From IMG/VR virus record IMGVR_UViG_3300037422_000262: a stretch of 64,000 nucleotides of DNA; one strand, given 5' to 3'. The DNA is from a virus. The notes under the pieces are model-generated. The model was given only the letters and a program-made list of their open reading frames with translations. It ran no database searches and was not told where the DNA came from. Positions 1 through 42,556 of the stretch are shown in pieces (position 1 is the first letter of the stretch; each line of letters begins with the position of its first letter). Made by a program: the position numbers and the translations under genes.

Positions 1-880
1 TCTTGTCCCAAATGTACGGTTTATCCGGCCGGGTGACGGACAATAACCCGGGCGAGTTTTCGCCGTAGGAATAGGCGTTATTGACTTTTTGCTGAAGGCC
101 CACCATCGACCAGGGCGGAGAGCAGCGGGGGTTATAGTGTTCGGCCATCAATTCCCAAGTCTTATCCGGGGTCAGCCCGAGATCTTTTCCTTTCGCCGCG
201 GCCTTGAACGCGCTCAGGTCGCCGTTATGGCCTTCGACCGCCGGGTCCGCGTTCATAAGGAATTTAATATAATTAGCGATATCAATGGGGTTATCCGCCA
301 TTACAGAGGCTGTTTCTTGGGCAGAAAGGGACCTGGGGCGCGTTAACAGGGCCAATAACGTGTCAGGGCATGGCGCGAGCTTGGACGGGCTCCCGGCGTG
401 GAATGTGTAGCCTTTTCCTTGTGCCTCGAGCCACGATCCCCCGGCCATGATGTATTTGTCTTTAAATTCCAACCCGGGGTAGTCTTTGAGGGTTGAGCGG
501 ATAAAAATATCCGGGGGTTTAGTGAAATAAAAATGATATCCGCCGGAGGGGGTCTTAACGGTGAATGTTTCGCGGTCTTTGGGGTTAAGTTTAAGGAAAC
601 CCCATAACCGGGCCAGGGGTTTGTCCCCGAGGGTGAAATTTTTGACGTCAACATCAATAACGAGGCGGTCAGGTTTAAGGATAGCGCCGTAATTGCGTTC
701 CTCCAGCGCCATAAGAGGGTCATGGGGTGTATCCGGGAACCCTTTAAAAGCCGGGAATTTGGTCCAGCCTTTGCAGGGGAAGAGGGGGAAACCGGCCGCC
801 AGGTACGCTTTAAATAGGGCTTGGTCCGTTTTCGCCGTCTGTGCCGCTCTTTCGCCGGGTGTTTTGGGGGCGGTTGGCAT
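1..880 (-). CDS. 5' part of Prim-Pol/VirE primase-helicase (truncated by window edge; full copy at 40439-42556)
   Basis: Sequence equals 41677-42556 apart from one synonymous change. Confidence 0.9.
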   Translation of the reverse strand, partial: MPTAPKTPGERAAQTAKTDQALFKAYLAAGFPLFPCKGWTKFPAFKGFPDTPHDPLMALEERNYGAILKPDRLVIDVDVKNFTLGDKPLARLWGFLKLNPKDRETFTVKTPSGGYHFYFTKPPDIFIRSTLKDYPGLEFKDKYIMAGGSWLEAQGKGYTFHAGSPSKLAPCPDTLLALLTRPRSLSAQETASVMADNPIDIANYIKFLMNADPAVEGHNGDLSAFKAAAKGKDLGLTPDKTWELMAEHYNPRCSPPWSMVGLQQKVNNAYSYGENSPGLLSVTRPDKPYIWDK

Positions 881-20789: not shown

Positions 20790-22355
20790 ATGACAGTCTC
20801 TAGCTCAACGAATAGGACACGGCTCACATCCGCCGGCGGGACAGAATTCGATTTTACATTCAGGATCTTTGTGGCCGCGGACTTGGATGTTTACGTTATC
20901 ACCTCAGCCGGAGTTGCTACTTTAAAAACACTTACGACAGATTATACGGTAGCTTTAGACAGCGACGGGACTGGGGGAACCGTTACTTTCGGCGTCGCGG
21001 TCACATCAGGGTCAGAAGTTTTAATGGTCCGTAACATAGATTATACCCAGCCGACCGATATTCCGGTCAATCAGGGGTTTCGGGAAGACACGATTGAAAC
21101 GGCTCTTGACCGCCTTGCTATGCAGATCCAGCAGTTAAAAGAGGGGCTTGACCGTTCGTTAACCTTATCTACGACCTCAGAGATAGATTCTCTGGCGCTT
21201 CCCGACCCGGAAGCTAATAAGTTTATCGCTTGGAATTCCGCCGGGACAGCGCTCGTGAATACAGACGGACCATCCGATGTTACGGGAATCGAGGTCACGT
21301 TCGGTGTTGGGGACGCGAAGAAAGTCCTCGGTATTAACGCGGCAGGTACGGATTTCGAATTAGAGGCTTTGTCGGCGAAGATCCAGCATTCTTTGGAGGT
21401 AGTTTCGAATAAGATCCAACTTGTGAATGACACGGCATCGCCGGGGAATAGAAAAGTTTATGGAACGAACGGGAGCGGAACCCGCGGGTGGCAGGACGGA
21501 ACGCAGATATTGGATGCTGATAGCGATACCGGGGTCGAGGTTGAACAATCGGCTGATGAAGATAAGGTAAGAATTAAATCGGCAGGAACGCAGCGGGCTG
21601 TGTTTGATTCTAACGGTTTAACGCTTCAGTCAGGTGTCAATGCTAATAAGATACTCGATGAAGATAATATGGCAAGCGACGATGCGGACGCTTTGGCAAC
21701 TCAGCAGTCGATCAAAGCGTATGTTGATTCTCTTATTGGCGTGTCTTCTGCGAGACGTCAAATTTTCACAGCGGACGGGTCGTTTACGGTTCCTGCGGGG
21801 ATTACTCAAGTTTTCGTATCGATGGTCGGCGGAGGCGGAGGTGGAGGAGGGACAGGAGGAAATGCAAATGATAGGGCAAGTGGGGGTGGAGCTGGGGAGA
21901 CTTTAATTAGGGCAAGGCATCCGGTTACTCCGGGGAATAGTTATTCCGTCGTTGTTGGACAAGGAGGGGACGGGGCCTTAGGGGTTGACGGAGCAAACGG
22001 TACAAATTCTTCATTCGATTCAACCCTTGTGGCTTCTTTTGGTACGGGCGGGACGAAAATGGATACTGGTTCCGCTCAGACCCCTGGGGTAGGCGGGGGA
22101 TCTTCGACATTTAATGCAGGGGCTCCCACGGGAGGAAACGGCGGATTTAAAGGTGGTAACGGCGGTACAGGAGTGGCGGCCGGAAGCGCCGGCGGTGGGG
22201 GAGGTACCCCGTTTGGACGCGGACCCACAGCCCCGACATCAGCGGGCGGCGGTACAGATGCGACGGATGGCACAGGGACAGGCGGTACCGGCGGTTATGC
22301 GGCAAATCAAGTTGGAGGGGACGGGGCGAATGGGATTGTTATTGTAGAATGGTAA
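20790..22355 (+). CDS. Tail fibre with T7 gp17-like N-terminal anchor and Gly-rich C-terminal domain
   Basis: FDFTFRIF...DLDVY...TDY.V N-terminus, ETALDRLAMQIQQL, and C-terminal VSMVGGGGGG...GGDGANGIVIVEW. Confidence 0.85.
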   Translation: MTVSSSTNRTRLTSAGGTEFDFTFRIFVAADLDVYVITSAGVATLKTLTTDYTVALDSDGTGGTVTFGVAVTSGSEVLMVRNIDYTQPTDIPVNQGFREDTIETALDRLAMQIQQLKEGLDRSLTLSTTSEIDSLALPDPEANKFIAWNSAGTALVNTDGPSDVTGIEVTFGVGDAKKVLGINAAGTDFELEALSAKIQHSLEVVSNKIQLVNDTASPGNRKVYGTNGSGTRGWQDGTQILDADSDTGVEVEQSADEDKVRIKSAGTQRAVFDSNGLTLQSGVNANKILDEDNMASDDADALATQQSIKAYVDSLIGVSSARRQIFTADGSFTVPAGITQVFVSMVGGGGGGGGTGGNANDRASGGGAGETLIRARHPVTPGNSYSVVVGQGGDGALGVDGANGTNSSFDSTLVASFGTGGTKMDTGSAQTPGVGGGSSTFNAGAPTGGNGGFKGGNGGTGVAAGSAGGGGGTPFGRGPTAPTSAGGGTDATDGTGTGGTGGYAANQVGGDGANGIVIVEW

Positions 22356-22373: not shown

Positions 22374-23255
22374 ATGTCATACGACGGCGGATTTAATTCA
22401 ACAGAACCAGTCATGTCAAAGAAAGACGTCGAGGTTCAGCAGGAAGCTGAACTTACAACCTATCAATTGAAGATCACGGCTCTTAAAAAAGAGGCGAGGG
22501 ATTTAACCTCCGAGATCTCTTTAAAACAAGCGGAGCTTAAGTCCATGATCGAATCTGCCCGTTTGGAATTGCAAACGGCTGAAAATCTTTCGGCCCAACA
22601 ACAGAAACAATTTTCTCTTGAGCAAGAACGATCCTTACAGTTGTTGGATGAACGCGCGGCGGCTTTAGATAGGTTGGAAGAGGCGTCGGTTAAACGTTTG
22701 ACGGAAGCGGAAGTGCTCGAGATCGAATTTAAACAGAAGATTGAGGAGCTCAATATCGCCCGGGTCACGGTCAATTCGATCCGTGCTGATTACGATTCCG
22801 CATTCTTACGGTTACGCAAAGACATAGCGGACCTAGATCAAAGGGAAGCGGCCATCCGGGAGAAAGAAAAGGAAGTGGAACAAGACGCTGATTCCGCCGA
22901 GCATATATTTAAAGAGATCAGGGCTATGCAGGATGACGTCCGGGCTTCGATCAAAGTTTCGGATGAGAAAAAAGCCGAAGCGGAAGCTCTTATGAAAAAA
23001 GCTTTTGATCGCCTGGAAGAGGCCCAGAAGCTTCATACATCCCTCCTTATTACCCAGCAAGAACGGGATGAGATCGAGGGCCTGAAAAAGAAATTGGAAG
23101 ATGAATTGGCGAACGTTAAACCGTACTTAGATACCCTTATCGAACGGGAATCCCGTTTAGTTGTCCGGGAACGCGCGGTTGAGATAGAAAAAAGGGAGGC
23201 TTCGACCAGATTACAAGAGGCCAAAAATTTAGAAAAGAAATTAGCCCAACCTTAA
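22374..23255 (+). CDS. Long coiled-coil protein (293 aa)
   Basis: SD AAGGAG; continuous E/K/L/A heptad composition. Confidence 0.75.
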   Translation: MSYDGGFNSTEPVMSKKDVEVQQEAELTTYQLKITALKKEARDLTSEISLKQAELKSMIESARLELQTAENLSAQQQKQFSLEQERSLQLLDERAAALDRLEEASVKRLTEAEVLEIEFKQKIEELNIARVTVNSIRADYDSAFLRLRKDIADLDQREAAIREKEKEVEQDADSAEHIFKEIRAMQDDVRASIKVSDEKKAEAEALMKKAFDRLEEAQKLHTSLLITQQERDEIEGLKKKLEDELANVKPYLDTLIERESRLVVRERAVEIEKREASTRLQEAKNLEKKLAQP

Positions 23256-23273
23256 TAGAGGAGGAATCACCCC

Positions 23274-23675
23274 ATGCCCGAAGTCGTCGCAGCAAAAACA
23301 ATAGATCTTTTATCATTAGGTGGAGTGACTGAATTAGCCGTCGCCTCTACTACAACCGTTTATGGGCGGTCTTTTCCTTTACCCAGAGAAGCTTCTTTTA
23401 GTTTAGAAATTCAGTTTGACTCCGCGGCCGCCGTGGATGTGAAGCTTGAATTAGAGAACGGGTCTTCCCGCCCCGATACAGAAGGGGCAGTTGACACTGA
23501 TTATGTTGAAGCGGACGGAGCAAGCGATGTCGCGACAGGGATCACAACGGAAACGGTCCATTTCATTCCTGTATCACCGACTGTTTCGCCGTTCGCCCGT
23601 TTCCGTTTTACCGGACAGGGGGCCAATGCCGCCAGCACGAAGATCACACGTTGTAAGCTGCATTATATTCAGTAG
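23274..23675 (+). CDS. Beta-rich hypothetical structural protein (133 aa)
   Basis: SD GGAGG; alternating beta-strand patterns (FSLEIQF, VKLELE, ARFRF). Confidence 0.7.
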   Translation: MPEVVAAKTIDLLSLGGVTELAVASTTTVYGRSFPLPREASFSLEIQFDSAAAVDVKLELENGSSRPDTEGAVDTDYVEADGASDVATGITTETVHFIPVSPTVSPFARFRFTGQGANAASTKITRCKLHYIQ

Positions 23676-26424
23676 TCTTTTTCTCTGGGCACTGAATGTT
23701 CAAGCGCAAGTTCGCGACTCTTATAACGAGGGCGATCTTGAAATGCAGGGCTATTCCGTCGACGGCCACGAATCTCTAGGCCTTTCCTTCGATTGCGACA
23801 ACGATAATTTCGACGAGCTTGTTTGTACCGCTTCCGGCGATCTGACCGTCGGGGATGTTACCTACACCGGGACAGACGGAGCTAACGGCGAGTGTTTAAG
23901 GACCGACGGGCTTGGCGGGACTTTTTTTGACACCTGCGCCAGCGGTTCCGGAGGTTCAGCGGATTCGGTAGCTTACCATAAAATAACCCCTCCTTTAACT
24001 TCCCACGGCATCGGCTTTTCCACATTCACGAATACTTGGACATCTGCCGCTTCAGCCACAGACTTCTTCACCATTTTAGGTACGTCAAACGCTGCCAGCC
24101 TTCTTCATTTGAACGGCGATGCTAACACGACCCGGATGATAATGGATGCTGACGCCGGGACGCCTCGTATATTCTCTTTTAGAACAGATGATGTCGCGCG
24201 TTGGGCTTTTCGTGTTGATGGAGCTGAAACGGGTTCAAATGTCGGAGGAGACCTTCATGTCAGGCGTTATGACGACGCGGGAACCTTGCTTGGCACGCCG
24301 ATGGCTTTTGTCCGCTCTAATGGCAGGGTTGGGATCGGAACAACAGCACCGAACGAACAGCTTGAGATCACTGAGAACTTACGCTTGCCTGCTTCCACAG
24401 CAACGACAGGTATTTATTATGCTGGCGGTAATCGGTTCATCCATAATATCGGGACGGACAGTTTATCTATCGGTACGAATGCCACTCAATTGAATTCCAC
24501 CAGTATCGCAAGGACCACGGTTGGAGGGGCTCAAGCATACAGCACATCGGGAGCCACCGGGGATGATATTACGGCTTTTGGCTATCAAGCCTGTAACGCC
24601 ATCACCTCTGCCGATGAAACGACGTGTATCGGTTCTTTGTCAGGAGCTTCTTCTTTGGGGGCTCAAAATACATTTTTAGGATATAATGCTCGGGCTTCTG
24701 GGACTTCTGAAACCCCAACTATTGCGATAGGGCACAATGCTATATGCCACGGACAATCGATCTGTGTCGGGAAAGACGCGACATCAACCGCGGCTAATCA
24801 AGTTATTATCGGGGGGAGCGACTCAACCGGGCAGATCAATGATGTTTATTTCGGCCGCGGCGTAACGGCAGCGAATCCACCGGCGAATGTTACATTGAAC
24901 CCTACTGGAAGGGTCGGGACTGACGCGACAGGAACACATTTGTATATCGCCGGAGGCAAAGCCACAGGTAACGCTGCCGGAGGGGATATTTCTTTCAGGA
25001 CATCCGACGCCGGAGTTTCCGGTTCAACCTTACAGACGTTATCTGAAAAATGGCAAGTTGATGCCGGAGGAGATTTCCTACCCGGCACAACAAACACGCG
25101 CAGTGTCGGTTCGGCCGGCAACAGGGTTGAATCGCTATTCCTTCACAATAACGGGGGGTATTCAATAGAATGGCCTGACACCGTTGAGCTGGGGGCATCT
25201 GCCGACCATTACCTTAAAGTTGGAGGGGCTTTCGGAGCGAATAGTTCCTCTTTCACATTATGGTTCGACCAATTAAAAACAACGGTGGATGCAGGGAATA
25301 ATATTCTAGGGATTTACCAGGGCGTTGCTAATGCTACTGCCGACGTGACCTCTAACAACCGCGTCGTGATTACGAACGACATTAATGGAGCTTCGCTCGA
25401 AGATTATTTTTATCTTGGGGCTTCCGGGGCAATAGCTCCTTCTCCGGGTATAAACTTTTTACATACAAACAGCTCAGCGCCACCGACCGCGTTAAACATG
25501 GGGTTCATCAATGAATCAGGTGGAGCGCGTTTCATATTCCGTCCAACGTTCGGGGACGTAATGCCAAGGGTAATATCTCCCGGAAGTAGTGGTATTTCCA
25601 TCACATTTGGCAAGGAAACGCAAACGACGCGTGATTCTTTGTTTCAATTCGAATATCCGACGGGGATGATCTTCCGTAACGCCGCGACGTTATCGAGTAT
25701 GGCCCATTTTTCAGGTTCAACCGCGGTAAATCCGGGGACGGGGGCCTCTGATATAATATCAAACGTAACGATCAGCGCTCCGACGTTCGTGACAAACACG
25801 CCTAACACAGCGACAAATTTATATATTCCAGAGGCCCCGACAGGCGGAACGGGTAATTATGCGATGTTTATCGATGGCGGGGTTTTAAGGGCTGATGACG
25901 GCGCTTTATTTAACAATGACCAAGGGGCAACGAATGATTTTATTGTCCGCGGAGATACTTTATCAAATTTATTTTATATAGATTATTCAGCGGATAAGAT
26001 CGGCATCGGCACATCGACACCGACCCACTCTCTTGATATAGTCGGCGGTATTGACGCCGACCATTGGCACGGAAGTGCGACAGATAATAGCGGAATTAAT
26101 TTCAATACGTTCACAAATACTTGGACTTCGACAGATGGCGGTTCCGGCACATTCTTCAGAATAGATACACCTTCAACGGATATTACGGTGACCAAAAACG
26201 GGAATGTTGGGATCGGAACGACCGCTCCGGCGCATCAGTTTGAATTTACGAATACTTGGACCCATTCAACGGCTGGCGTCTTTTTCCCGCGATGTGTTTC
26301 TTCCGATCCCTGCACGATAGCCTTAAAGACGGGACAATTTGCCAACTGTAATACGGGCGAGCCGTGTTACTGCGATAATAATGGAAACGGTATAAGTTCG
26401 GTTGATGGAACAAATTGTTTTTAA
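23626..26424 (+). CDS. Exported tail-fibre/adhesin-like protein with Sec signal peptide (~932 aa)
   Basis: In-frame ATG 23626 with SD-like GGACAGGGGG gives MPPARRSHVVSCIIFSSLFLWALNVQA|QVRD. Three GIGT fibre repeats, three FTNTWT motifs, Cys clusters at both ends. Confidence 0.7.
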   Translation: MPPARRSHVVSCIIFSSLFLWALNVQAQVRDSYNEGDLEMQGYSVDGHESLGLSFDCDNDNFDELVCTASGDLTVGDVTYTGTDGANGECLRTDGLGGTFFDTCASGSGGSADSVAYHKITPPLTSHGIGFSTFTNTWTSAASATDFFTILGTSNAASLLHLNGDANTTRMIMDADAGTPRIFSFRTDDVARWAFRVDGAETGSNVGGDLHVRRYDDAGTLLGTPMAFVRSNGRVGIGTTAPNEQLEITENLRLPASTATTGIYYAGGNRFIHNIGTDSLSIGTNATQLNSTSIARTTVGGAQAYSTSGATGDDITAFGYQACNAITSADETTCIGSLSGASSLGAQNTFLGYNARASGTSETPTIAIGHNAICHGQSICVGKDATSTAANQVIIGGSDSTGQINDVYFGRGVTAANPPANVTLNPTGRVGTDATGTHLYIAGGKATGNAAGGDISFRTSDAGVSGSTLQTLSEKWQVDAGGDFLPGTTNTRSVGSAGNRVESLFLHNNGGYSIEWPDTVELGASADHYLKVGGAFGANSSSFTLWFDQLKTTVDAGNNILGIYQGVANATADVTSNNRVVITNDINGASLEDYFYLGASGAIAPSPGINFLHTNSSAPPTALNMGFINESGGARFIFRPTFGDVMPRVISPGSSGISITFGKETQTTRDSLFQFEYPTGMIFRNAATLSSMAHFSGSTAVNPGTGASDIISNVTISAPTFVTNTPNTATNLYIPEAPTGGTGNYAMFIDGGVLRADDGALFNNDQGATNDFIVRGDTLSNLFYIDYSADKIGIGTSTPTHSLDIVGGIDADHWHGSATDNSGINFNTFTNTWTSTDGGSGTFFRIDTPSTDITVTKNGNVGIGTTAPAHQFEFTNTWTHSTAGVFFPRCVSSDPCTIALKTGQFANCNTGEPCYCDNNGNGISSVDGTNCF

Positions 26425-26434
26425 AGGAGGGATT

Positions 26435-26752
26435 ATGCGTAAAGTCATTATTGGTGTTTTATTTGGGTGTCTTTTAACAACCGCCTGTCATGCCGCGTTG
26501 ACGGCCGGGCAAAAGTCTAAGATGAGGCGTTATTTTCGATATTGGGTCACAGCGGCAGACGTCCAAGACGTCTTGGATACCAGGTTGACCTCGATCTTCA
26601 ATATGCTTTCCGAGGCTCAGCAAGAGGCTGTTTTCACGCAGATGAAAGCTGATATTGTCGATTACCATAATCTCATGGAAACGACACGGCAAGGGCAGAT
26701 CAATGAACTTAATGCCGGAATAACAACGTTGGAATCGGATATAGGGATATAA
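26435..26752 (+). CDS. Exported helical protein with signal peptide (105 aa)
   Basis: SD AAGGAGG before ATG 26435; MRKVIIGVLFGCLLTTACHA|A. Confidence 0.7.
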   Translation: MRKVIIGVLFGCLLTTACHAALTAGQKSKMRRYFRYWVTAADVQDVLDTRLTSIFNMLSEAQQEAVFTQMKADIVDYHNLMETTRQGQINELNAGITTLESDIGI

Positions 26753-27796: not shown

Positions 27797-28050
27797 TGGA
27801 TAAAATGACCCCTTTTAAAATATTTAGCGGGAAATTTGTTTTTACCGTAATTACCGCCCTTGTCTTTGCTTATTCTGCGTGGGCAAAAGTCCTTAATGGC
27901 GAGCAGATCTATGGAGTGATAATGCTCGTTGTGGCTTTCTATTTCAACAAAAATCAAGAACAAACCGAACACCTAAACGGAGGGAAAAATGAAGAAACTA
28001 ATCCTGTTAATTATCCTGCTGATCCTGCCGAGCCTGGCGCTGGCAAATGA
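27796..28050 (+). CDS. Holin-like two-TM protein
   Basis: Two short TMs ending in VVAFYF plus a charged tail; lies before the spanin-like pair. Confidence 0.5.
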   Translation: MDKMTPFKIFSGKFVFTVITALVFAYSAWAKVLNGEQIYGVIMLVVAFYFNKNQEQTEHLNGGKNEETNPVNYPADPAEPGAGK

Positions 28051-28453
28051 TCCTGATCTGACGGTCACGATCGGCGAAGAGAAGGAAACGACGGCTGTTG
28101 TGATCCCGGCATCGCCTTTAGAGAAGGTGATCGACAGGATCCCCGAACTTCAAAATGCGGTCATGTGGAATTGGAAAACCAAAGAGATCGATTACGCGGC
28201 CATGTTCAATCTTTTGGAATGGAAAGGTGCTAGTTTCGCGCTCGGCTATACGCCGGCAGAAACGCTCGTGTTCGGGCTTTCCTATAATTTAGGAAGCTTG
28301 GAAAATTTGGGTGTTAAGACCGTGATCCTTAAAGACATCAAACTTGAGCCGACCGTTTTCTACTCCCTTGATCGTATCAATATCCAAGACACATCGACAG
28401 CATCGGAAGGATTTGCCGTCGGTGCTAAATTGCTCGAAGTGAGGTTTTGGTAA
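27989..28453 (+). CDS. Exported protein with probable outer-membrane beta-strands and C-terminal aromatic signature
   Basis: Signal peptide MKKLILLIILLILPSLALA; strands SFALGYT, LVFGLSYNL, LEPTVFYSL, GFAVGAKLLEVRFW-COOH. Confidence 0.55.
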   Translation: MKKLILLIILLILPSLALANDPDLTVTIGEEKETTAVVIPASPLEKVIDRIPELQNAVMWNWKTKEIDYAAMFNLLEWKGASFALGYTPAETLVFGLSYNLGSLENLGVKTVILKDIKLEPTVFYSLDRINIQDTSTASEGFAVGAKLLEVRFW

Positions 28454-28689
28454 TGGTCTGGCAAAAAATGATAGCCGGGGTTATCGGAAGCGGGCTTGGC
28501 AAAGCTGTCGGTAAGCTCGTGGACTATATCCCAGGTAAGACCGAAGCCCGAAGGAACCGTATCGAAAAACTCGAAAAGGAGCAAGATGAGATCAAACGTA
28601 AACCCCCGTCGGTTTCTGGTACTAAGCGTCTTATGGATATTGCCGATGAGCTTGGCAAGCTGTATCAGCACGCCAAAAACTCAGAATAA
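28453..28689 (+). CDS. i-spanin (Rz)-like protein
   Basis: N-terminal amphipathic/hydrophobic segment and coiled coil; overlapped by a lipoprotein gene in another frame. Confidence 0.45.
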   Translation: MVWQKMIAGVIGSGLGKAVGKLVDYIPGKTEARRNRIEKLEKEQDEIKRKPPSVSGTKRLMDIADELGKLYQHAKNSE

Positions 28690-28837
28690 GCAGCCCTATA
28701 TCGAACCTAACCGATCGACGGCGGACTGTAACGTGCATTTGGAATACGGGCAAGCAGGACACTTGCCGATCAATGTTCCCAGGTGCGGGTCGTGGACGTG
28801 TTTTAACAACGATCATTACCGGGAGATAGCGAAGTGA
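28586..28837 (+). CDS. Lipoprotein, o-spanin (Rz1)-like
   Basis: Internal SD AAGGAG before ATG 28586; MRSNVNPRRFLVLSVLWILPMSLAS|C lipobox; Pro/Cys-containing mature part. Confidence 0.6.
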   Translation: MRSNVNPRRFLVLSVLWILPMSLASCISTPKTQNKQPYIEPNRSTADCNVHLEYGQAGHLPINVPRCGSWTCFNNDHYREIAK

Positions 28838-29001
28838 ACTGTCCGAAAGATGATATCCGCATGGTCAAACGGCACAGGATCGATATGTCCATGAAACGTA
28901 TCGCCTTTGCTTTTTATCGCTGCCATAAATGCAACCGGGAGTACGATGAGCAAGGGAACAGGATAAAGATCAAAGGCGATAAATATGAGGTGATAGGATG
29001 A
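28834..29001 (+). CDS. Zn-ribbon-like small protein (55 aa, MNCPKDD...YRCHKCNREY; not in ORF track)
   Basis: GTGA and ATGA overlaps at both ends; CP..D and CxxC motifs. Confidence 0.6.
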   Translation: MNCPKDDIRMVKRHRIDMSMKRIAFAFYRCHKCNREYDEQGNRIKIKGDKYEVIG

Positions 29002-29459
29002 ATGAAAGAAACTTACAGCTTAAAGTTTTTGCGTCTTTCCTTATTGTTTTTATTTTTGCGGCTTTGTATGCGTGGGGCGGGATGGAAATGAAATGGCTTC
29101 GCCGATATCTTGCCCCCGCGGTCTTGTGCGGCGGGTGCTATTGGATAAGCCGTGACTGGCGGTTCTTTGTCTCGCTGCCTCTTAGTTTCCTCTCCCTATC
29201 GCTCGGTTACGGCTCAGATATTGAAATATGGAAGATCATTAAGAGGGGGGCTTTTGGCTTGGCAAATGGAGCTGTCTTCTCGATCAGGAACCTTTGGCAG
29301 AGATATTGGATCCCTGCCGTCTTCCAGATATTACTTCTTCCGGCGGCGTATATCGCCTTCGGGGTTTATAATCCGCTCCCGGCCCGCGTCGAAGAATTCA
29401 CGCTCGGAGTCCTCGTCGCGTTCATTCCCGTTATGAGCGCTTTTATTAAGAAAGACTAA
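28998..29459 (+). CDS. Multi-pass membrane protein (153 aa)
   Basis: Four to five hydrophobic helices; ATGA-coupled start. Confidence 0.7.
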   Translation: MNERNLQLKVFASFLIVFIFAALYAWGGMEMKWLRRYLAPAVLCGGCYWISRDWRFFVSLPLSFLSLSLGYGSDIEIWKIIKRGAFGLANGAVFSIRNLWQRYWIPAVFQILLLPAAYIAFGVYNPLPARVEEFTLGVLVAFIPVMSAFIKKD

Positions 29460-29467
29460 ACTATACT

Positions 29468-30688
29468 ATGAAGTTTTGGCAAAAAGCCCTTCCTAAAACG
29501 GGGCTTCTTTTTATCTCGCTTCTCATTGAAGTCAAACTCTTTCCCTTTATTCCGATCGATTATGTAGATCCGCGTTTAAGCAAAGAGCTTCTGGCCTCTC
29601 TCTTCGCGGCCGGAACGATTCTTTGCGTCTTACGGACAGGGCCATGGGCCCCCATGAAAAACCCCTATCTTCTCGGGCTTCTTTTTTACTGCCTTCTCTC
29701 GCCTTTCCTTCATTCCACCTTGACCTTCCCAACGGTCCCGGATTCGGTCATCGCTTCTTTGTGGGGGTATAAAGCTCTTTGGTATATCATCCTTTACTTT
29801 CTTTTCGGATGGGCTATCGCTTCTATCCGATGGAATCGCCATGATGAGGATCATTTTCGTAATATTTTTATTTTCTTAGGCGCTGTCAGTTCGATCTATG
29901 GTTTCATCCAAGCTTTTTTGCCGGATCAATTCCAAATATTGAATCACGACCCTTTTACGCAGAACACAACAAATAAAGAGATCACCTCTTTTTTTGCCCA
30001 CCCCAATTTCGCGTCCTCATTCATCGTGATAACGCTCCCCTTTATGTACCGGGCGAGGAAGCGGGCCTGGATCGCTTTTTGTTCGGGGGTAGTTTTAATG
30101 ATCGACAGTAAATTCGCTGTCTTAGGGTTGTCCGTCGTCACTTATCTTTATGGGATGTATCTTCTACGTGGCTGGAGATTGTACTGGAATTTAATATGGA
30201 GTTTTCTTCTCGTATGGTTCGTCTCCGCGGCCGCCCTTCACCCTGCCATGCTGGGCTCAAGCGGCCGGTTCGTTGTTTGGGGATATATGTGGCAGGATCT
30301 TCTTAACAGCCCCTTGGCGCCGGGGAAATCTTTCTTGTTGACCGGTTACGGTTTGGGGTCGTTCTCCTATTTATTTATGAATATGCATGGGATATATTTC
30401 GCGGAAGCCCACAGCCTTCTTTTTGAGTTCGTTTTTAATATGGGATTGATAGGGGGTATCTTACTAATATTTTCGATATTTTGGTTGATTTTTAAAATAA
30501 CCCCCTCTATAATCGAAAGTGAAGATACGTGGGTGTGGTATTGCGTGTTCGGAGCGTTAAGTGTCATGTCGTTCGGGTACTTCTTCGAACATATCGAACC
30601 CCATCGTTATATTTGGTGTTTAACCGCCGGGATGCTGTATCAAAAACTTCTTAAAGGAGAGCCACATGAAAAGAGTTCTTGTACTTAG
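29468..30688 (+). CDS. Wzy_C family O-antigen ligase / O-oligosaccharyltransferase-like membrane protein
   Basis: About 11-12 TMs; YGFIQ, ITSFFAHPNFASSF, SSGRFVVW, GYGLGSF and EAHSLLFEFVFNMGLIG motifs with the conserved Arg and His. Confidence 0.8.
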   Translation: MKFWQKALPKTGLLFISLLIEVKLFPFIPIDYVDPRLSKELLASLFAAGTILCVLRTGPWAPMKNPYLLGLLFYCLLSPFLHSTLTFPTVPDSVIASLWGYKALWYIILYFLFGWAIASIRWNRHDEDHFRNIFIFLGAVSSIYGFIQAFLPDQFQILNHDPFTQNTTNKEITSFFAHPNFASSFIVITLPFMYRARKRAWIAFCSGVVLMIDSKFAVLGLSVVTYLYGMYLLRGWRLYWNLIWSFLLVWFVSAAALHPAMLGSSGRFVVWGYMWQDLLNSPLAPGKSFLLTGYGLGSFSYLFMNMHGIYFAEAHSLLFEFVFNMGLIGGILLIFSIFWLIFKITPSIIESEDTWVWYCVFGALSVMSFGYFFEHIEPHRYIWCLTAGMLYQKLLKGEPHEKSSCT

Positions 30689-31049
30689 TTTAGCCGTTCT
30701 CATCCTGATCGCCTCAAATGCTTTCGCCGGGAAATTCGTCGTCGATGGGGATAATCAGGGACAATTCACGGATCTGTTTATTCTAGGCGCCCCGGACTCC
30801 GCTAAATCCGGCAATGACGCGACGATCGATCTGCGTAATCTAGGGAACGAATCAGCCAGCGGGAATACCGGGGTATCGATCTCCCAGGCTGATACGGGTG
30901 AGGCGTTGATCAACGCGGTTTGTACGCCTTCGGGCGGGGATATCACTTGCGGGACATACACAACGACAACGGGTTCTAAATCCGGGTCCATTATGATCGA
31001 TCTGAACGGAACTCCGATGTGGCTTTGGCTTTATAATAAACCTAATTAA
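30666..31049 (+). CDS. Exported short fibre-like protein with signal peptide (127 aa)
   Basis: SD AAGGAG; MKRVLVLSLAVLILIASNAFA|G; C-terminal SQADTGEALIN...KSGSIMIDLNGTPMWLWLY. Stop overlaps the convergent ruvC-like stop. Confidence 0.65.
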   Translation: MKRVLVLSLAVLILIASNAFAGKFVVDGDNQGQFTDLFILGAPDSAKSGNDATIDLRNLGNESASGNTGVSISQADTGEALINAVCTPSGGDITCGTYTTTTGSKSGSIMIDLNGTPMWLWLYNKPN

Positions 31050-40455: not shown

Positions 40456-42556
40456 GCGTCTCATCCGGCCGTTCTTTTGTGTAATACCACAGCAAAACCC
40501 CGTCTTTACGCAGCCTTTGTTTCTTGAACCCCAATTGTTTTAAGCATACCGCCATACGCATCGCGTCACGGTGGGAAAATTGCGCGATCGCGGCGCCTAA
40601 ACATGACGTATAGATATCTTTAAGCTCGACCGCGATCAGAGGATTTAATTTTTGGCCCAGCTTATTCTCCCGGCGGGTGAAGATCTCTTTATTTTTCTCG
40701 ACCCAGCCCCCGATGACGGGTTTCCACGGATCTTCGGATTGACGTTTCGCGATCTCCTCCTGCACGACTTCTCCCAGTTTTTGATCGTCGATATAAAGCC
40801 TTTCTCCTCTTAAATATAACTGATACGCCTCCGCCCATAACTGATCGCGGTCAGCTTCCAAAGCTTTAAAATCCACTCCCCTTATCATCACCGGCCAATA
40901 CCTGCGGTTGCCGGTCGTGTCGTGGAGATAGCCTTCGCTTTCCGGGTTGATCGTCCCAATAAAAGCGCATTGACGCGGGAAATCCATAACAGACCGCCCA
41001 TAGGCCGGCCGCGCGCGGTCGACGCGCCGGGTGATAAAAGCTTTCAATGTTTTAGCTTCGTATTTAGAGAGAGCTTCCATTTCCGCGAGTTCAACGATCC
41101 AGTTCCCCCGGATGATATCGATCGCGTCTTTATTACGCGGGTCAAAGGCCGCGTCGGTGAACCAAGGCTGGGCAAGGATACGGCATAAGCGGCTTTTGCC
41201 TATCCCCTGGGCGCCTTCCAGGACGAGGACGTAATCGCATTGGCAGCCGGGGTTAAAGATCCGCGTCACGGCTGCGGCCAAGAATTTACGCCCGAGGGTG
41301 CGGGTGTAGAGTTCATCAGCAGCCCCGGCATAAGCTGTCAGCCATGCATCAACGCGGGGTTTTGAGTCCCACTTCAATGCCTGGATATAATTGCGGATAG
41401 GATGATAACTTTTTTGCATGGCGATATAGACGGCCGCTTCATGGATCAAGGCCGTCGCGGCGTTGAACTTATGCTTGCGCGCCAGGTGGACCTTGCAATG
41501 GATCGCGTCGGAGTCTTCCCATGTGCTGTGGGGTTTATTCCATCCGGGCTCTTTGATAAATTCAATGCGGTCGGTCAATAAGTTATAGCGGAGGTTATCG
41601 AATAAAGGGGCGTGTTCGTCCATGCTTAACAGCTGCACCGTATTATGGATGTTCGTCTTATAACTTTCGTCTTTGTTCTTGTCCCAAATGTACGGTTTAT
41701 CCGGCCGGGTGACGGACAGTAACCCGGGCGAGTTTTCGCCGTAGGAATAGGCGTTATTGACTTTTTGCTGAAGGCCCACCATCGACCAGGGCGGAGAGCA
41801 GCGGGGGTTATAGTGTTCGGCCATCAATTCCCAAGTCTTATCCGGGGTCAGCCCGAGATCTTTTCCTTTCGCCGCGGCCTTGAACGCGCTCAGGTCGCCG
41901 TTATGGCCTTCGACCGCCGGGTCCGCGTTCATAAGGAATTTAATATAATTAGCGATATCAATGGGGTTATCCGCCATTACAGAGGCTGTTTCTTGGGCAG
42001 AAAGGGACCTGGGGCGCGTTAACAGGGCCAATAACGTGTCAGGGCATGGCGCGAGCTTGGACGGGCTCCCGGCGTGGAATGTGTAGCCTTTTCCTTGTGC
42101 CTCGAGCCACGATCCCCCGGCCATGATGTATTTGTCTTTAAATTCCAACCCGGGGTAGTCTTTGAGGGTTGAGCGGATAAAAATATCCGGGGGTTTAGTG
42201 AAATAAAAATGATATCCGCCGGAGGGGGTCTTAACGGTGAATGTTTCGCGGTCTTTGGGGTTAAGTTTAAGGAAACCCCATAACCGGGCCAGGGGTTTGT
42301 CCCCGAGGGTGAAATTTTTGACGTCAACATCAATAACGAGGCGGTCAGGTTTAAGGATAGCGCCGTAATTGCGTTCCTCCAGCGCCATAAGAGGGTCATG
42401 GGGTGTATCCGGGAACCCTTTAAAAGCCGGGAATTTGGTCCAGCCTTTGCAGGGGAAGAGGGGGAAACCGGCCGCCAGGTACGCTTTAAATAGGGCTTGG
42501 TCCGTTTTCGCCGTCTGTGCCGCTCTTTCGCCGGGTGTTTTGGGGGCGGTTGGCAT
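40439..42556 (-). CDS. Bifunctional primase/polymerase (Prim-Pol) fused to VirE/VapE-type helicase
   Basis: FPLFPCKG...LVIDVD...VKTPSGGYHFYF Prim-Pol motifs; P-loop LEGAQGIGKS and DTTGNRRYW; spans the unit junction. Confidence 0.9.
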   Translation of the reverse strand: MPTAPKTPGERAAQTAKTDQALFKAYLAAGFPLFPCKGWTKFPAFKGFPDTPHDPLMALEERNYGAILKPDRLVIDVDVKNFTLGDKPLARLWGFLKLNPKDRETFTVKTPSGGYHFYFTKPPDIFIRSTLKDYPGLEFKDKYIMAGGSWLEAQGKGYTFHAGSPSKLAPCPDTLLALLTRPRSLSAQETASVMADNPIDIANYIKFLMNADPAVEGHNGDLSAFKAAAKGKDLGLTPDKTWELMAEHYNPRCSPPWSMVGLQQKVNNAYSYGENSPGLLSVTRPDKPYIWDKNKDESYKTNIHNTVQLLSMDEHAPLFDNLRYNLLTDRIEFIKEPGWNKPHSTWEDSDAIHCKVHLARKHKFNAATALIHEAAVYIAMQKSYHPIRNYIQALKWDSKPRVDAWLTAYAGAADELYTRTLGRKFLAAAVTRIFNPGCQCDYVLVLEGAQGIGKSRLCRILAQPWFTDAAFDPRNKDAIDIIRGNWIVELAEMEALSKYEAKTLKAFITRRVDRARPAYGRSVMDFPRQCAFIGTINPESEGYLHDTTGNRRYWPVMIRGVDFKALEADRDQLWAEAYQLYLRGERLYIDDQKLGEVVQEEIAKRQSEDPWKPVIGGWVEKNKEIFTRRENKLGQKLNPLIAVELKDIYTSCLGAAIAQFSHRDAMRMAVCLKQLGFKKQRLRKDGVLLWYYTKERPDETLDNIL

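Follow-up and report, generated by a model that had tools for sequence, protein, structure and literature searches.

Tail fibres decide host range, and both their folding and their attachment are assumed to take place in the cytoplasm. A fibre-like gene in IMG/VR record IMGVR_UViG_3300037422_000262, whose product appears to combine a signal peptide with cysteine clusters, raises the question of where such a fibre folds and what becomes of it.

Genome context of the fibre locus

The stretch of DNA analysed (the window, 64,000 nucleotides) runs about 1.5 times through a T7-like podovirus genome of 41,676 bp, which is circular or terminally redundant. Its replication genes are T7-type and no integrase was found in the phage. 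An overlapping spanin-like pair with the lipobox LASC suggests a diderm host. A host search of 301 genomes from the phylum of MAG G004 (an uncultured Pseudobdellovibrionaceae bacterium) gave no match at 1e-8, and promoter and terminator scans gave signals at shuffle level. The fibre locus contains the following features:

20790..22355, plus strand: conventional anchored tail fibre, 521 aa, 0 Cys, with a podovirus N-terminal anchor (phrog_1640, residues 1-126) and a Gly_rich_2 domain
22374..23675, plus strand: coiled-coil protein (293 aa) and p133 (phrog_28213), between both fibres
23626..23706, plus strand: predicted signal peptide, 27 aa; its first 50 nt overlap the p133 end in another frame
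23707..26424, plus strand: mature fibre-like protein, 905 aa, and stop codon
23743..23745, plus strand: alternative internal start M40, with GAGGG 10 nt 5'; start of the public, leaderless 893-aa call
26435..26752, plus strand: small signal-peptide protein, 105 aa, with an AAGGAGG Shine-Dalgarno site; 11 nt past the fibre stop

The fibre ORF extends over 23491..26424 (+) and encodes 932 aa from the ATG at 23626. With the end of p133 at 23675, the ORF overlaps this gene by 185 nt when read from 23491, an overlap that the initial annotation had given, and by 50 nt when read from the ATG. The 105-aa gene occupies the usual slot of tail-fibre chaperones. Envelope-directed genes adjoin the fibre, including a Wzy_C-type protein, an OMP-like protein and further signal-peptide proteins.

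Start site and signal peptide

A gene start at ATG 23626 and a precursor with a cleavable Sec (SPase I) signal peptide are strongly supported, and both parts of the original proposal hold. The 932-aa precursor begins MPPARRSHVVSCIIFSSLFLWALNVQA/QVRD, with a predicted SPase I cut at A27/Q28, and its leader consists of the n-region MPPARRSH, the h-region VVSCIIFSSLFLWAL and the c-region NVQA. The leader contains no lipobox: the c-region reads NVQA/Q, and the sole leader Cys (position 12) lies inside the h-region. An ESM Atlas entry is identical, letter for letter, to the 932-aa form. A Tat leader (ARRSHV) was rejected because of the strong hydrophobicity of the h-region and the plain Sec leaders of the MKK type in relatives. 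The idea of a +1 frameshift that fuses p133 to the fibre was also dropped, as the p133 family ends at its own stop and there is no indication of a shift site.

Signal peptides were scored by a simple heuristic on ATGs with at least 40 open codons. In the window, 11 of 419 ATGs were signal-peptide-like. Besides the target, nine of these fall within the true membrane/secreted genes at 26.4-31 kb, and a single off-strand false positive remains. Off frame, the heuristic yields about 1 false positive in 400. Among homologues, signal-peptide-like N-termini occur in 20 of 21 proteins with an FTNTWT-type motif (19 of the 20 besides the target) versus 89 of 270 other matches (Fisher p = 3e-8, target excluded). 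The one leaderless motif-bearing protein looks N-terminally truncated. The same C-terminal Cys cap is found in 10 proteins, every one with a signal peptide, and the leader is also kept in both phage genomes with usable context. This is the opposite of the outcome that would have refuted the original proposal. The leader is thus probably missing from the public 893-aa call, which starts at 23743.

That call corresponds to an alternative in which translation from ATG 23743 (M40) yields an ordinary, cytoplasmically assembled second tail fibre and the hydrophobic stretch is the out-of-frame p133 end plus a T-rich spacer. The GAGGG site fits this start, which does not overlap p133 and lies just 13 residues past the predicted cleavage site, and no homologue aligns with residues 1-52. 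The purine-rich Shine-Dalgarno site previously assigned to ATG 23626 is present (AGGGGG), but its spacing is short at 3 nt; other genes in the window have GGAG at 5-10 nt. This short spacing, the 50-nt overlap with p133 and the independent M40 call argue against the model that we favour below. We nonetheless consider the start artefact very unlikely, given the conserved leaders and the low off-frame false-positive rate of the heuristic. The phage relatives G002 and G003, moreover, have leaders without a nearby alternative start, and the cytoplasmic tail and internal proteins of this phage have 0 Cys, compared with 14 in the mature chain.

Less probable still is that both starts are used, with 23626 giving an exported isoform and 23743 a cytoplasmic one that lacks the leader, so that one gene would serve particle and envelope. 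The two in-frame ATGs are 39 codons apart with a Shine-Dalgarno-like site at each, and the short form would start near the mature N-terminus of the long form. However, conservation of this arrangement fails in G002, where the 56 codons after the leader contain no start, and a Cys-rich cap is not expected to fold well in the cytoplasm. We conclude that the 932-aa protein is very probably exported in a Sec-dependent manner.

The residue at +1 of the predicted mature protein is Gln, which is found at this position in only 8 of 20 distinct family members. The Bacteroidetes Q-rule describes Gln at +1 after the signal peptide cut (PMC5837995).

Modular architecture and the fibre family

The 932-aa protein has no Pfam match, with YadA_head repeats below threshold. 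A search of the representative library gave 4,770 matches, which are mosaic proteins with tail-fibre domains. We distinguished the following modules:

23794..23937, plus strand: N-proximal four-Cys module (C57, C67, C90, C104)
24025..24042, plus strand: FTNTWT motif 1, in a block conserved across all family members
24163..24402, plus strand: beta-helix module containing GRVGIGTTAP, homologous to the Bdellovibrio Bd3182 MAT fibre
24409..25155, plus strand: Gly/Ala/Ser-rich repeat region, with YadA_head (PF05658) or PTL_trimer (PF26696) in homologues
24976..25914, plus strand: central domain common to short leaderless fibre proteins
26110..26262, plus strand: FTNTWT motifs 2 and 3 (residues 829-834 and 874-879), flanking GNVGIGTTAP
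26284..26421, plus strand: C-terminal Cys cap, residues 887-932, ending in C-F

The three FTNTWT copies (residues 134, 829 and 874) and three G-x-[VI]-GIGT motifs (GRVGIGT at 233, KIGIGT at 791 and GNVGIGT at 859) that had been read from the sequence are present. F131, W138, T139 and F147 of the FTNTWT block are invariant in the A1 alignment. The term 'YadA-like' for the repeats is justified by way of homologues that carry PF05658 (P0009, P0020, P0024 and others), Pfam giving no match for the target itself. The central domain is 43% identical to P0091 over residues 451-763 and 44% identical to P0099 over residues 504-760.

Cys residues are located at position 12 in the leader and at 57/67/90/104, 323/334/374/380 and 890/896/908/914/916/931 in the mature chain. 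The Cys clusters at the two termini had been reported earlier; the third, at 323/334/374/380, had gone unmentioned. Modules related to the N-proximal four-Cys module recur within other signal-peptide-bearing family members. The C-terminal cap follows the pattern ...PC...PC[YVW]C...C[FYD]-end, with C896, C914, C916 and C931 invariant across 9 sequences. A full-length AF2 model (32-row alignment) has a mean pLDDT of 48, and only its Gly/Ala/Ser-rich repeat region reaches about 60-84; Foldseek on this model was non-significant, with the Bd3182 fibre ranked first. The AF2 model of the cap has a pLDDT of 83-94 and no significant fold match in the PDB.

These data strongly support the assignment of the target to a phage-borne family of signal-peptide-bearing, Cys-rich fibre proteins. 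Equally well supported is a family plan of an N-proximal FTNTWT block, a shaft of mosaic beta-helix and YadA-head-like modules and interchangeable C-terminal tips, with the four-Cys cap as one of several tip types. Tips swap among family members in the style of receptor-binding proteins. Median Cys content is 0.54 per 100 aa in signal-peptide-like matches versus 0.20 in others (p = 2.7e-5), which upholds the proposed link between cysteine and export. The value is 1.55 for the mature target and 0 for the anchored fibre, portal and internal virion proteins of the same phage. Signal peptides and Cys clusters are found in every recognisable relative, so the target very probably folds outside the cytoplasm, the compartment in which phage particles are built.

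Relatives in other phage genomes

We found no close relatives of the target in IMG/VR or JGI metagenomes, and only three weak partial matches among GenBank phages. The homologues P0022 and P0161 had no match in the contig collections. A degenerate DNA pattern for G..F..FTN[TS]WT recovered G001-G003. Tail-module context was read in the window, in G002 (with G001) and in G003; several other members lie on contigs of 38-49 kb.

The complete relative G002 (42,301 bp) shows synteny with the target phage from terminase to primase, at 30-50% identity (about 40% protein identity genome-wide). Its orthologous slot encodes a 976-aa protein with a TTG start, a strong Shine-Dalgarno site (AGGAGA) 7 nt upstream and a leader (...LLISNAWA/DC); the next ATG lies 56 codons further along. 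The N-termini of this protein and the target are barely alignable. G002 also encodes counterparts of the coiled-coil protein and p133 (279 aa and 116 aa), in swapped order. Between p406 of the target phage and p389 of G002, identity is 30%, and p389 matches Wzy_C at 5.8e-11.

G003 is an unrelated, temperate siphovirus-like phage whose fibre has a signal peptide. At 61% identity (E 4e-13), residues 18-63 of this fibre align with residues 1-46 of a 923-aa fibre that has no leader. The residues after the leader thus correspond to the N-terminus of a leaderless fibre, so that a canonical fibre N-terminus would be restored on cleavage.

Context is available in three phage genomes, representing two independent lineages; in each, the gene closes the tail module and a small signal-peptide protein is encoded next. 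These small proteins of the target phage, G002 and G003 share their position and have no mutual sequence similarity. The 105-aa protein is a candidate co-exported partner or chaperone of the 932-aa fibre. Further signal-peptide proteins, including a Laminin_G_3 protein, are encoded 3' of the fibre in G002 and G003.

Comparison with known fibres and exported proteins

A PDB sequence search matched target residues 180-259 to residues 68-147 of the crystallised Bd3182 fragment (8OJN/8ONB/8ONC, E 5e-11). Bd3182 is one of the Bdellovibrio mosaic adhesive trimer (MAT) fibres, all 21 of which carry a signal peptide (PMC10769870). Like MATs, the target has a signal peptide with a conserved block of its family behind it, a mosaic trimeric shaft resembling phage tail fibres, with a beta-helix and capping-loop motif, and variable C-terminal tips. 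In MATs the block after the signal peptide is a beta-rich domain of about 130 aa, and the MAT structures in the PDB are C-terminal fragments. MATs differ in that they are chromosomal genes of a predator and are surface-displayed, whereas the target gene is phage-borne and lies in a tail module. The target also lacks an S74 tip (no PF13884) or a known NS74 tip, its own tip having no significant PDB match.

With classical podovirus fibres such as T7 gp17 and with branched receptor-binding-protein systems, the target has in common its position at the tail-module end, tip swapping and a small gene after it, and its shaft modules recur in leaderless fibres (P0091, P0099 and the MSAGIEIYNY... group). 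Unlike T7 gp17-type fibres, it has a Sec signal peptide, 14 mature Cys and no recognisable anchor; the classical anchored fibre is encoded by a separate upstream gene. Neither PHROG nor Pfam gave a gp17-type anchor match at the target N-terminus, and Pfam found no Peptidase_S74 domain (PF13884), bearing out the reported absence of an anchor and a chaperone domain. A T4 gp9/10-like reading of the N-terminus (DNDNFDEL) was rejected, with no Pfam match even at E = 10. Second receptor-binding proteins are found in K1-5/SP6-type phages.

The consecutive tail-region proteins gp085, gp086 and gp087 of the cultured podovirus phi18:3 of Cellulophaga (NC_021794) all start with textbook signal peptides and are annotated in the GenBank record as virion structural proteins from MS/MS. 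They hint that such proteins reach virions and are the only experimental sign of this that we found. Detection by MS does not prove stoichiometric incorporation. The three proteins are non-homologous to the target (best E about 1) and have 0-3 Cys, and phi18:3 has a 71-kb genome and belongs to Pachyviridae, a family distinct from that of the target phage.

Trimeric autotransporter adhesins such as YadA share with the target a signal peptide and, judging by its PF05658-bearing homologues, possibly Gly/Ala-rich head-type repeats. Some, the Eib proteins, are prophage-borne. Pfam finds no YadA_anchor beta-barrel in the target, which ends in the 46-residue Cys cap instead. The target likewise lacks a T9SS C-terminal sorting domain (TIGR04183/TIGR04131), and NCBIfam at E <= 0.05 gave no sorting-domain match in the target, the G002 and G003 proteins, P0161 or P0152. 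The T5 protein Llp and Cor are receptor-masking lipoproteins with a lipobox and small size; the target, in contrast, has 932 aa and no lipobox. Late phage proteins that are Sec-exported before lysis include signal-peptide or SAR endolysins such as fOg44 Lys44 (cited in PMC8878798) and the Q-rule signal-peptide proteins of P. gingivalis phages (PMC10367356). Those are enzymes or small proteins of unknown function, whereas the target is fibre-like.

Possible fates of the fibre

The initial annotation had offered two fates, a cell-surface adhesin or receptor mask and a receptor-binding fibre that matures in the periplasm and joins the virion at lysis. Its start, signal peptide, link between Cys and export and missing anchor and chaperone domain stand.

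We tentatively favour a periplasm-matured second virion fibre. The precursor would be made late, co-transcribed with virion genes, and exported via Sec. Cleavage would give a mature chain starting at Q28, and trimerisation and disulfide formation would occur in the periplasm, possibly assisted by the small downstream exported protein. The fibre would accumulate there until holin lesions merge cytoplasm and periplasm, with the outer membrane still intact. It would then meet finished particles, which already bear the Cys-free anchored 521-aa fibre, and join them as a second receptor-binding fibre, with a docking site possibly provided by the coiled-coil protein and p133.

The signal-peptide virion proteins of phi18:3 modestly favour this virion branch, which is also supported by the leaderless twin of the G003 fibre, tip swapping and the small gene in the usual chaperone slot. 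Moreover, the phage has T7-type replication genes and no integrase was found, and a conversion adhesin would be of little use in a dying cell. Virion joining is the weakest link of the chain. A complete anchored fibre is already present, which argues against a second one, as does the mature N-terminus, in which we recognised no docking domain. In the literature searched, we found no published precedent for a fibre that joins the particle after lysis and no description of a Sec-exported route for tailed-phage fibres.

The envelope-directed neighbours fit a role in the cell envelope equally well. An exported protein that stays off the virion, a fibre-like trimer that acts on the infected-cell envelope or is freed as a protein, is the main rival and in our view somewhat less probable. 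Such a protein could bind a surface glycan or receptor, preventing superinfection or keeping progeny off debris, or could serve as an adhesin or lectin, and might be modified by, or be a partner of, the neighbouring Wzy_C-type membrane protein. The closest solved relatives, the Bdellovibrio MAT fibres, are signal-peptide-bearing cell-surface adhesins (PMC10769870), and the weak structural look-alikes include trimeric autotransporter heads. The target gene opens a block in which signal-peptide and membrane proteins are frequent (p406, with its Wzy_C link), and the additional signal-peptide proteins after the G002 and G003 fibres (including Laminin_G_3) point in the same direction. Signal-peptide proteins of P. 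gingivalis phages have been interpreted as outer-membrane modifiers (PMC10367356). The anchored fibre already on the virion also speaks for this fate. However, the target has no outer-membrane translocation or anchoring signal (YadA_anchor, T9SS C-terminal domain, lipobox or NCBIfam sorting domain), which, together with the lack of an integrase, weakens the cell-surface-adhesin branch. A mask for the same receptor would be expected to share a tip with the phage's own fibre, and the two have no tip in common. The fibre-slot position, tip swapping and leaderless G003 twin suggest instead an origin as a receptor-binding protein.

Slightly more tentatively than for the target itself, we suggest that tailed phages of several morphotypes may route distal receptor-binding fibres through Sec, fold and disulfide-bond them in the periplasm and add them to cytoplasm-built particles at holin lesions.

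Implications

If the favoured model is true, the receptor-binding apparatus would depend in part on host Sec, signal peptidase and Dsb enzymes and on holin timing. Sec-routed fibres would form a two-compartment assembly line outside the textbook picture, with the target as one clear podovirus example backed by a conserved family, and models of virion assembly would be affected. If the protein never joins the particle, it would represent a new class of fibre that is large, encoded by a phage, directed at the envelope and made in lytic growth. Recombinant receptor-binding proteins of this kind would need periplasmic expression. For annotation, standard gene callers can lose the leader, as in the public 893-aa call, and signal-peptide fibres may be misfiled as host adhesins or truncated.

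Genome and gene layout

The 64-kb window repeats its own sequence every 41,676 bp (the ORF at 343..723 is seen again at 42019..42399, and the ORFs at 2-22355 at 41678-64000). It therefore covers about 1.5 copies of a phage genome that is circular or terminally redundant. PHROG matches across the window show the gene order of a T7-like podovirus on the plus strand, and T7-type replication genes (primase-helicase, exonuclease, gp2.5-like SSB, DNA polymerase and resolvase) lie on the minus strand. No integrase was detected in the window phage genome.

Features of the window phage genome
4103, plus strand: terminase (PHROG)
5932, plus strand: portal (PHROG)
9028, plus strand: major capsid protein (PHROG)
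10527 and 11178, plus strand: tail tubular proteins A and B (PHROG)
13484 and 13923, plus strand: internal virion proteins (PHROG)
14366 and 16003 (1594 aa), plus strand: two large ORFs with no PHROG match, placed where further internal virion proteins would be
20790-22355, plus strand: 521-aa tail fibre with podovirus N-terminal anchor (phrog_1640) and Gly_rich_2 domain
3' of the anchored fibre, in order: 293-aa coiled-coil protein, 133-aa protein (phrog_28213), fibre-like protein under study (23626-26424)
26435-26752: small signal-peptide protein, preceded by AAGGAGG
28447-28837: i-spanin/o-spanin-like overlapping pair (80-aa protein with N-terminal hydrophobic segment; 83-aa lipoprotein in another frame)

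The start codon and the leader

The fibre-like protein (932 aa, predicted cleavage A27↓Q28) very probably has a real leader that is used. As the initial annotation described, its longest ORF overlaps the gene for the 133-aa protein by 185 nt, and an in-frame ATG at 23626, overlapping by 50 nt, opens the leader MPPARRSHVVSCIIFSSLFLWALNVQA↓Q. The Shine-Dalgarno-like sequence noted for this ATG (AGGGGG) has a spacing of only 3 nt. A second plausible start, the ATG at 23743 (M40), has GAGGG 10 nt upstream. Gene callers differ here: a shorter 893-aa call starting at M40, which loses the leader, is an entry in a public protein collection, and the 932-aa form is an entry in the ESM Atlas.

No homologue aligns to residues 1-52, so conservation of the leader is not directly readable, and the start at 23626 was decided by four indirect lines: a low base rate, the family, genomes with context and composition. 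Signal peptides were called with a simple n/h/c-region heuristic, which flags 11 of the 419 ATGs having at least 40 open codons in the window genome. Nine of these lie in the membrane/secreted block; the other two are the fibre-like gene and an off-strand false positive.

The signal peptide is conserved in the family. Among about 300 fetched homologues, 21 contain an FTNTWT-type motif, and 20 of the 21 begin with a signal-peptide-like segment that includes a site of the A-x-A type; the sole exception, P0235, looks like a truncated leader. Other homologues are signal-peptide-like in 89 of 270 cases (Fisher p = 3e-8, fibre-like protein excluded). The C-terminal cap (...PC...PC[YVW]C...C[FYD]-end) is common to ten proteins, all with a signal peptide.

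A degenerate DNA pattern for the FTNTWT-type motif identified three IMG/VR contigs. One, G002, is a 42,301-bp genome with direct terminal repeats, rated complete and syntenic with the window phage throughout (identities: terminase 46%, portal 36%, capsid 50%, tubular B 40%, polymerase 42%, fibre 31%, and 30% and 31% for the 406-aa and 127-aa proteins of the membrane block). Its 976-aa family member, encoded between a coiled-coil protein and a membrane block, has a TTG start with AGGAGA 7 nt upstream and the leader ...NSLCFLLLISNAWA↓DC; no further ATG occurs until 56 codons into the gene. Another, G003, is an unrelated, probably temperate siphovirus-like phage (38,696 bp) with a putative integrase-like 324-aa ORF. 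Directly 3' of its tail genes lies an 890-aa family member (L049:6106-8775, minus strand) with an ATG start, GGAG 6 nt upstream and the leader MKKFIFILLFLSLSNPLFA↓Q. Several family members occur on contigs of 38-49 kb, the size range of these phage genomes.

The mature protein contains 1.55 Cys per 100 aa, and Cys is absent from the anchored fibre, portal and internal virion proteins of the window phage. The initial annotation correctly noted four N-proximal and six C-terminal Cys and omitted four more (323, 334, 374 and 380). Signal-peptide-like homologues have a median of 0.54 Cys per 100 aa, versus 0.20 for the others (p = 2.7e-5). The public 893-aa call thus most likely drops the leader.

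Modular architecture

Sequence comparisons indicate that the protein is a mosaic fibre. All three FTNTWT and all three G-x-[VI]-GIGT motifs previously described were located, and neither an anchor domain nor an S74 chaperone domain was detectable, again as proposed. Residues ~260-510 match Gly/Ala-rich repeats of the shaft, which elsewhere occur in proteins with YadA_head or PTL_trimer domains; the earlier 'YadA-like' label finds support only via PF05658-bearing homologues. Over residues 451-763 the protein is 43-44% identical to short phage fibre proteins that lack a leader. It ends in a small 46-residue domain with four invariant Cys (C896, C914, C916 and C931), for which the predicted model is confident (pLDDT 83-94) and has no significant match in the PDB; the full-length model is poor (pLDDT 48). 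Across the family, N-proximal modules are recombined with at least three tip types: the CxC cap, ...ILCIGH (G002 and homologue P0077) and ...ATGDRE...SYTG (G003 and homologue P0015). Such recombination is typical of receptor-binding proteins.

Sequence similarity (E 5e-11) links residues 180-259 to the beta-helix of Bd3182, a Bdellovibrio MAT fibre. MAT fibres, the closest characterised relatives, are surface adhesins carrying signal peptides (PMC10769870). This relationship favours a non-virion, envelope-directed fibre (a receptor mask, adhesin or free lectin), which we consider nearly as likely as a virion role. The particle of the window phage also already has an anchored fibre, another point for the envelope-directed reading. 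Against that reading, the fibre-like protein shares no tip with the anchored fibre.

Predicted export and a candidate route to the virion

We found no outer-membrane crossing or anchoring signal in the protein (YadA_anchor, T9SS C-terminal domain, lipobox or NCBIfam sorting domain). Its default place after Sec export would therefore be the periplasm until lysis, and this lack of a surface-display signal, like the lytic appearance of the genome, argues against envelope-directed function.

Two observations tilt the balance towards a virion role. First, the G003 fibre shares 61% identity (E 4e-13) across its residues 18-63 with the first 46 residues of a 923-aa fibre that lacks a leader, contains 4 Cys and is found in other viral contigs (L057:3990-6758, plus strand; shared N-terminus KITELTEDT...TKK.T.GNL). 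The G003 leader has thus been put before a canonical fibre N-terminus, which cleavage would restore. Second, gp085, gp086 and gp087 of Cellulophaga phage phi18:3 (NC_021794; L060:5892-11584) are consecutive, each starting with a textbook signal peptide of Bacteroidota type (...GYSQ↓V, ...VSAQ↓T, ...LNAQ↓T), and are recorded there as virion structural proteins 'based on experimental MS/MS proteomics analysis'. These proteins are neither homologous to the fibre-like protein nor Cys-rich and so are a precedent for the principle only.

Canonical holins open very large inner-membrane lesions before spanins break the outer membrane. From this established behaviour we infer that periplasmic fibres and finished particles would share one compartment for a time and could mix. 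In the window phage, G002 and G003 alike, a small signal-peptide protein starts at or just past the fibre stop, the usual position of a fibre chaperone; these small proteins have no mutual similarity.

Full-text literature searches returned no description of Sec-routed tail fibres; what they did return were endolysins with signal peptides and unnamed phage proteins with signal peptides. The protein is of the tail-fibre type, its predicted route through the cell is unusual, and it has a well-defined family and a proposed mechanism that can be checked.

The downstream membrane and secreted block

The fibre-like gene heads a block of many membrane and secreted proteins, a position that also fits envelope-directed function. 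The spanin-like pair, whose lipoprotein (start 28586) has the lipobox LASC, suggests a diderm host. The last two genes of the block encode a multi-pass protein of 406 aa and a signal-peptide protein of 127 aa. The 406-aa protein has no Pfam match of its own. Along its whole length it shares 30% identity with a 389-aa G002 protein that matches Wzy_C (O-antigen ligase, polymerase or O-oligosaccharyltransferase family; 5.8e-11), and by transitive homology it is a predicted Wzy_C-type protein. A ~110-127-aa signal-peptide protein follows this gene in both phages (window 29468-31049; G002, L046:8690-10214). The Wzy_C-type protein could modify surface glycan, or its glycosylation targets could be exported proteins, the fibre among them. 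The presence of this conserved protein in the neighbourhood of the fibre gene, and the interpretation of Porphyromonas gingivalis phage signal-peptide proteins as outer-membrane modifiers (PMC10367356), are further points for an envelope-directed fibre.

A 154-aa protein (27989-28453) has a clear signal peptide (ALA↓ND) and no family match, and no counterpart was found in G002 or G003; its C-terminus, ...RFW, resembles those of small outer-membrane beta-barrels. A 153-aa four-helix membrane protein (28998-29459) is 35% identical to a G003 protein (L049:4017-4499, minus strand) that also lies 3' of a signal-peptide fibre cassette, in an otherwise unrelated phage. After their fibres, G002 encodes a 430-aa protein that has a signal peptide and matches no family (L046:6414-7706), and G003 a 259-aa signal-peptide protein (L049:4985-5761, minus strand) with a Laminin_G_3 lectin/glucanase-type domain.
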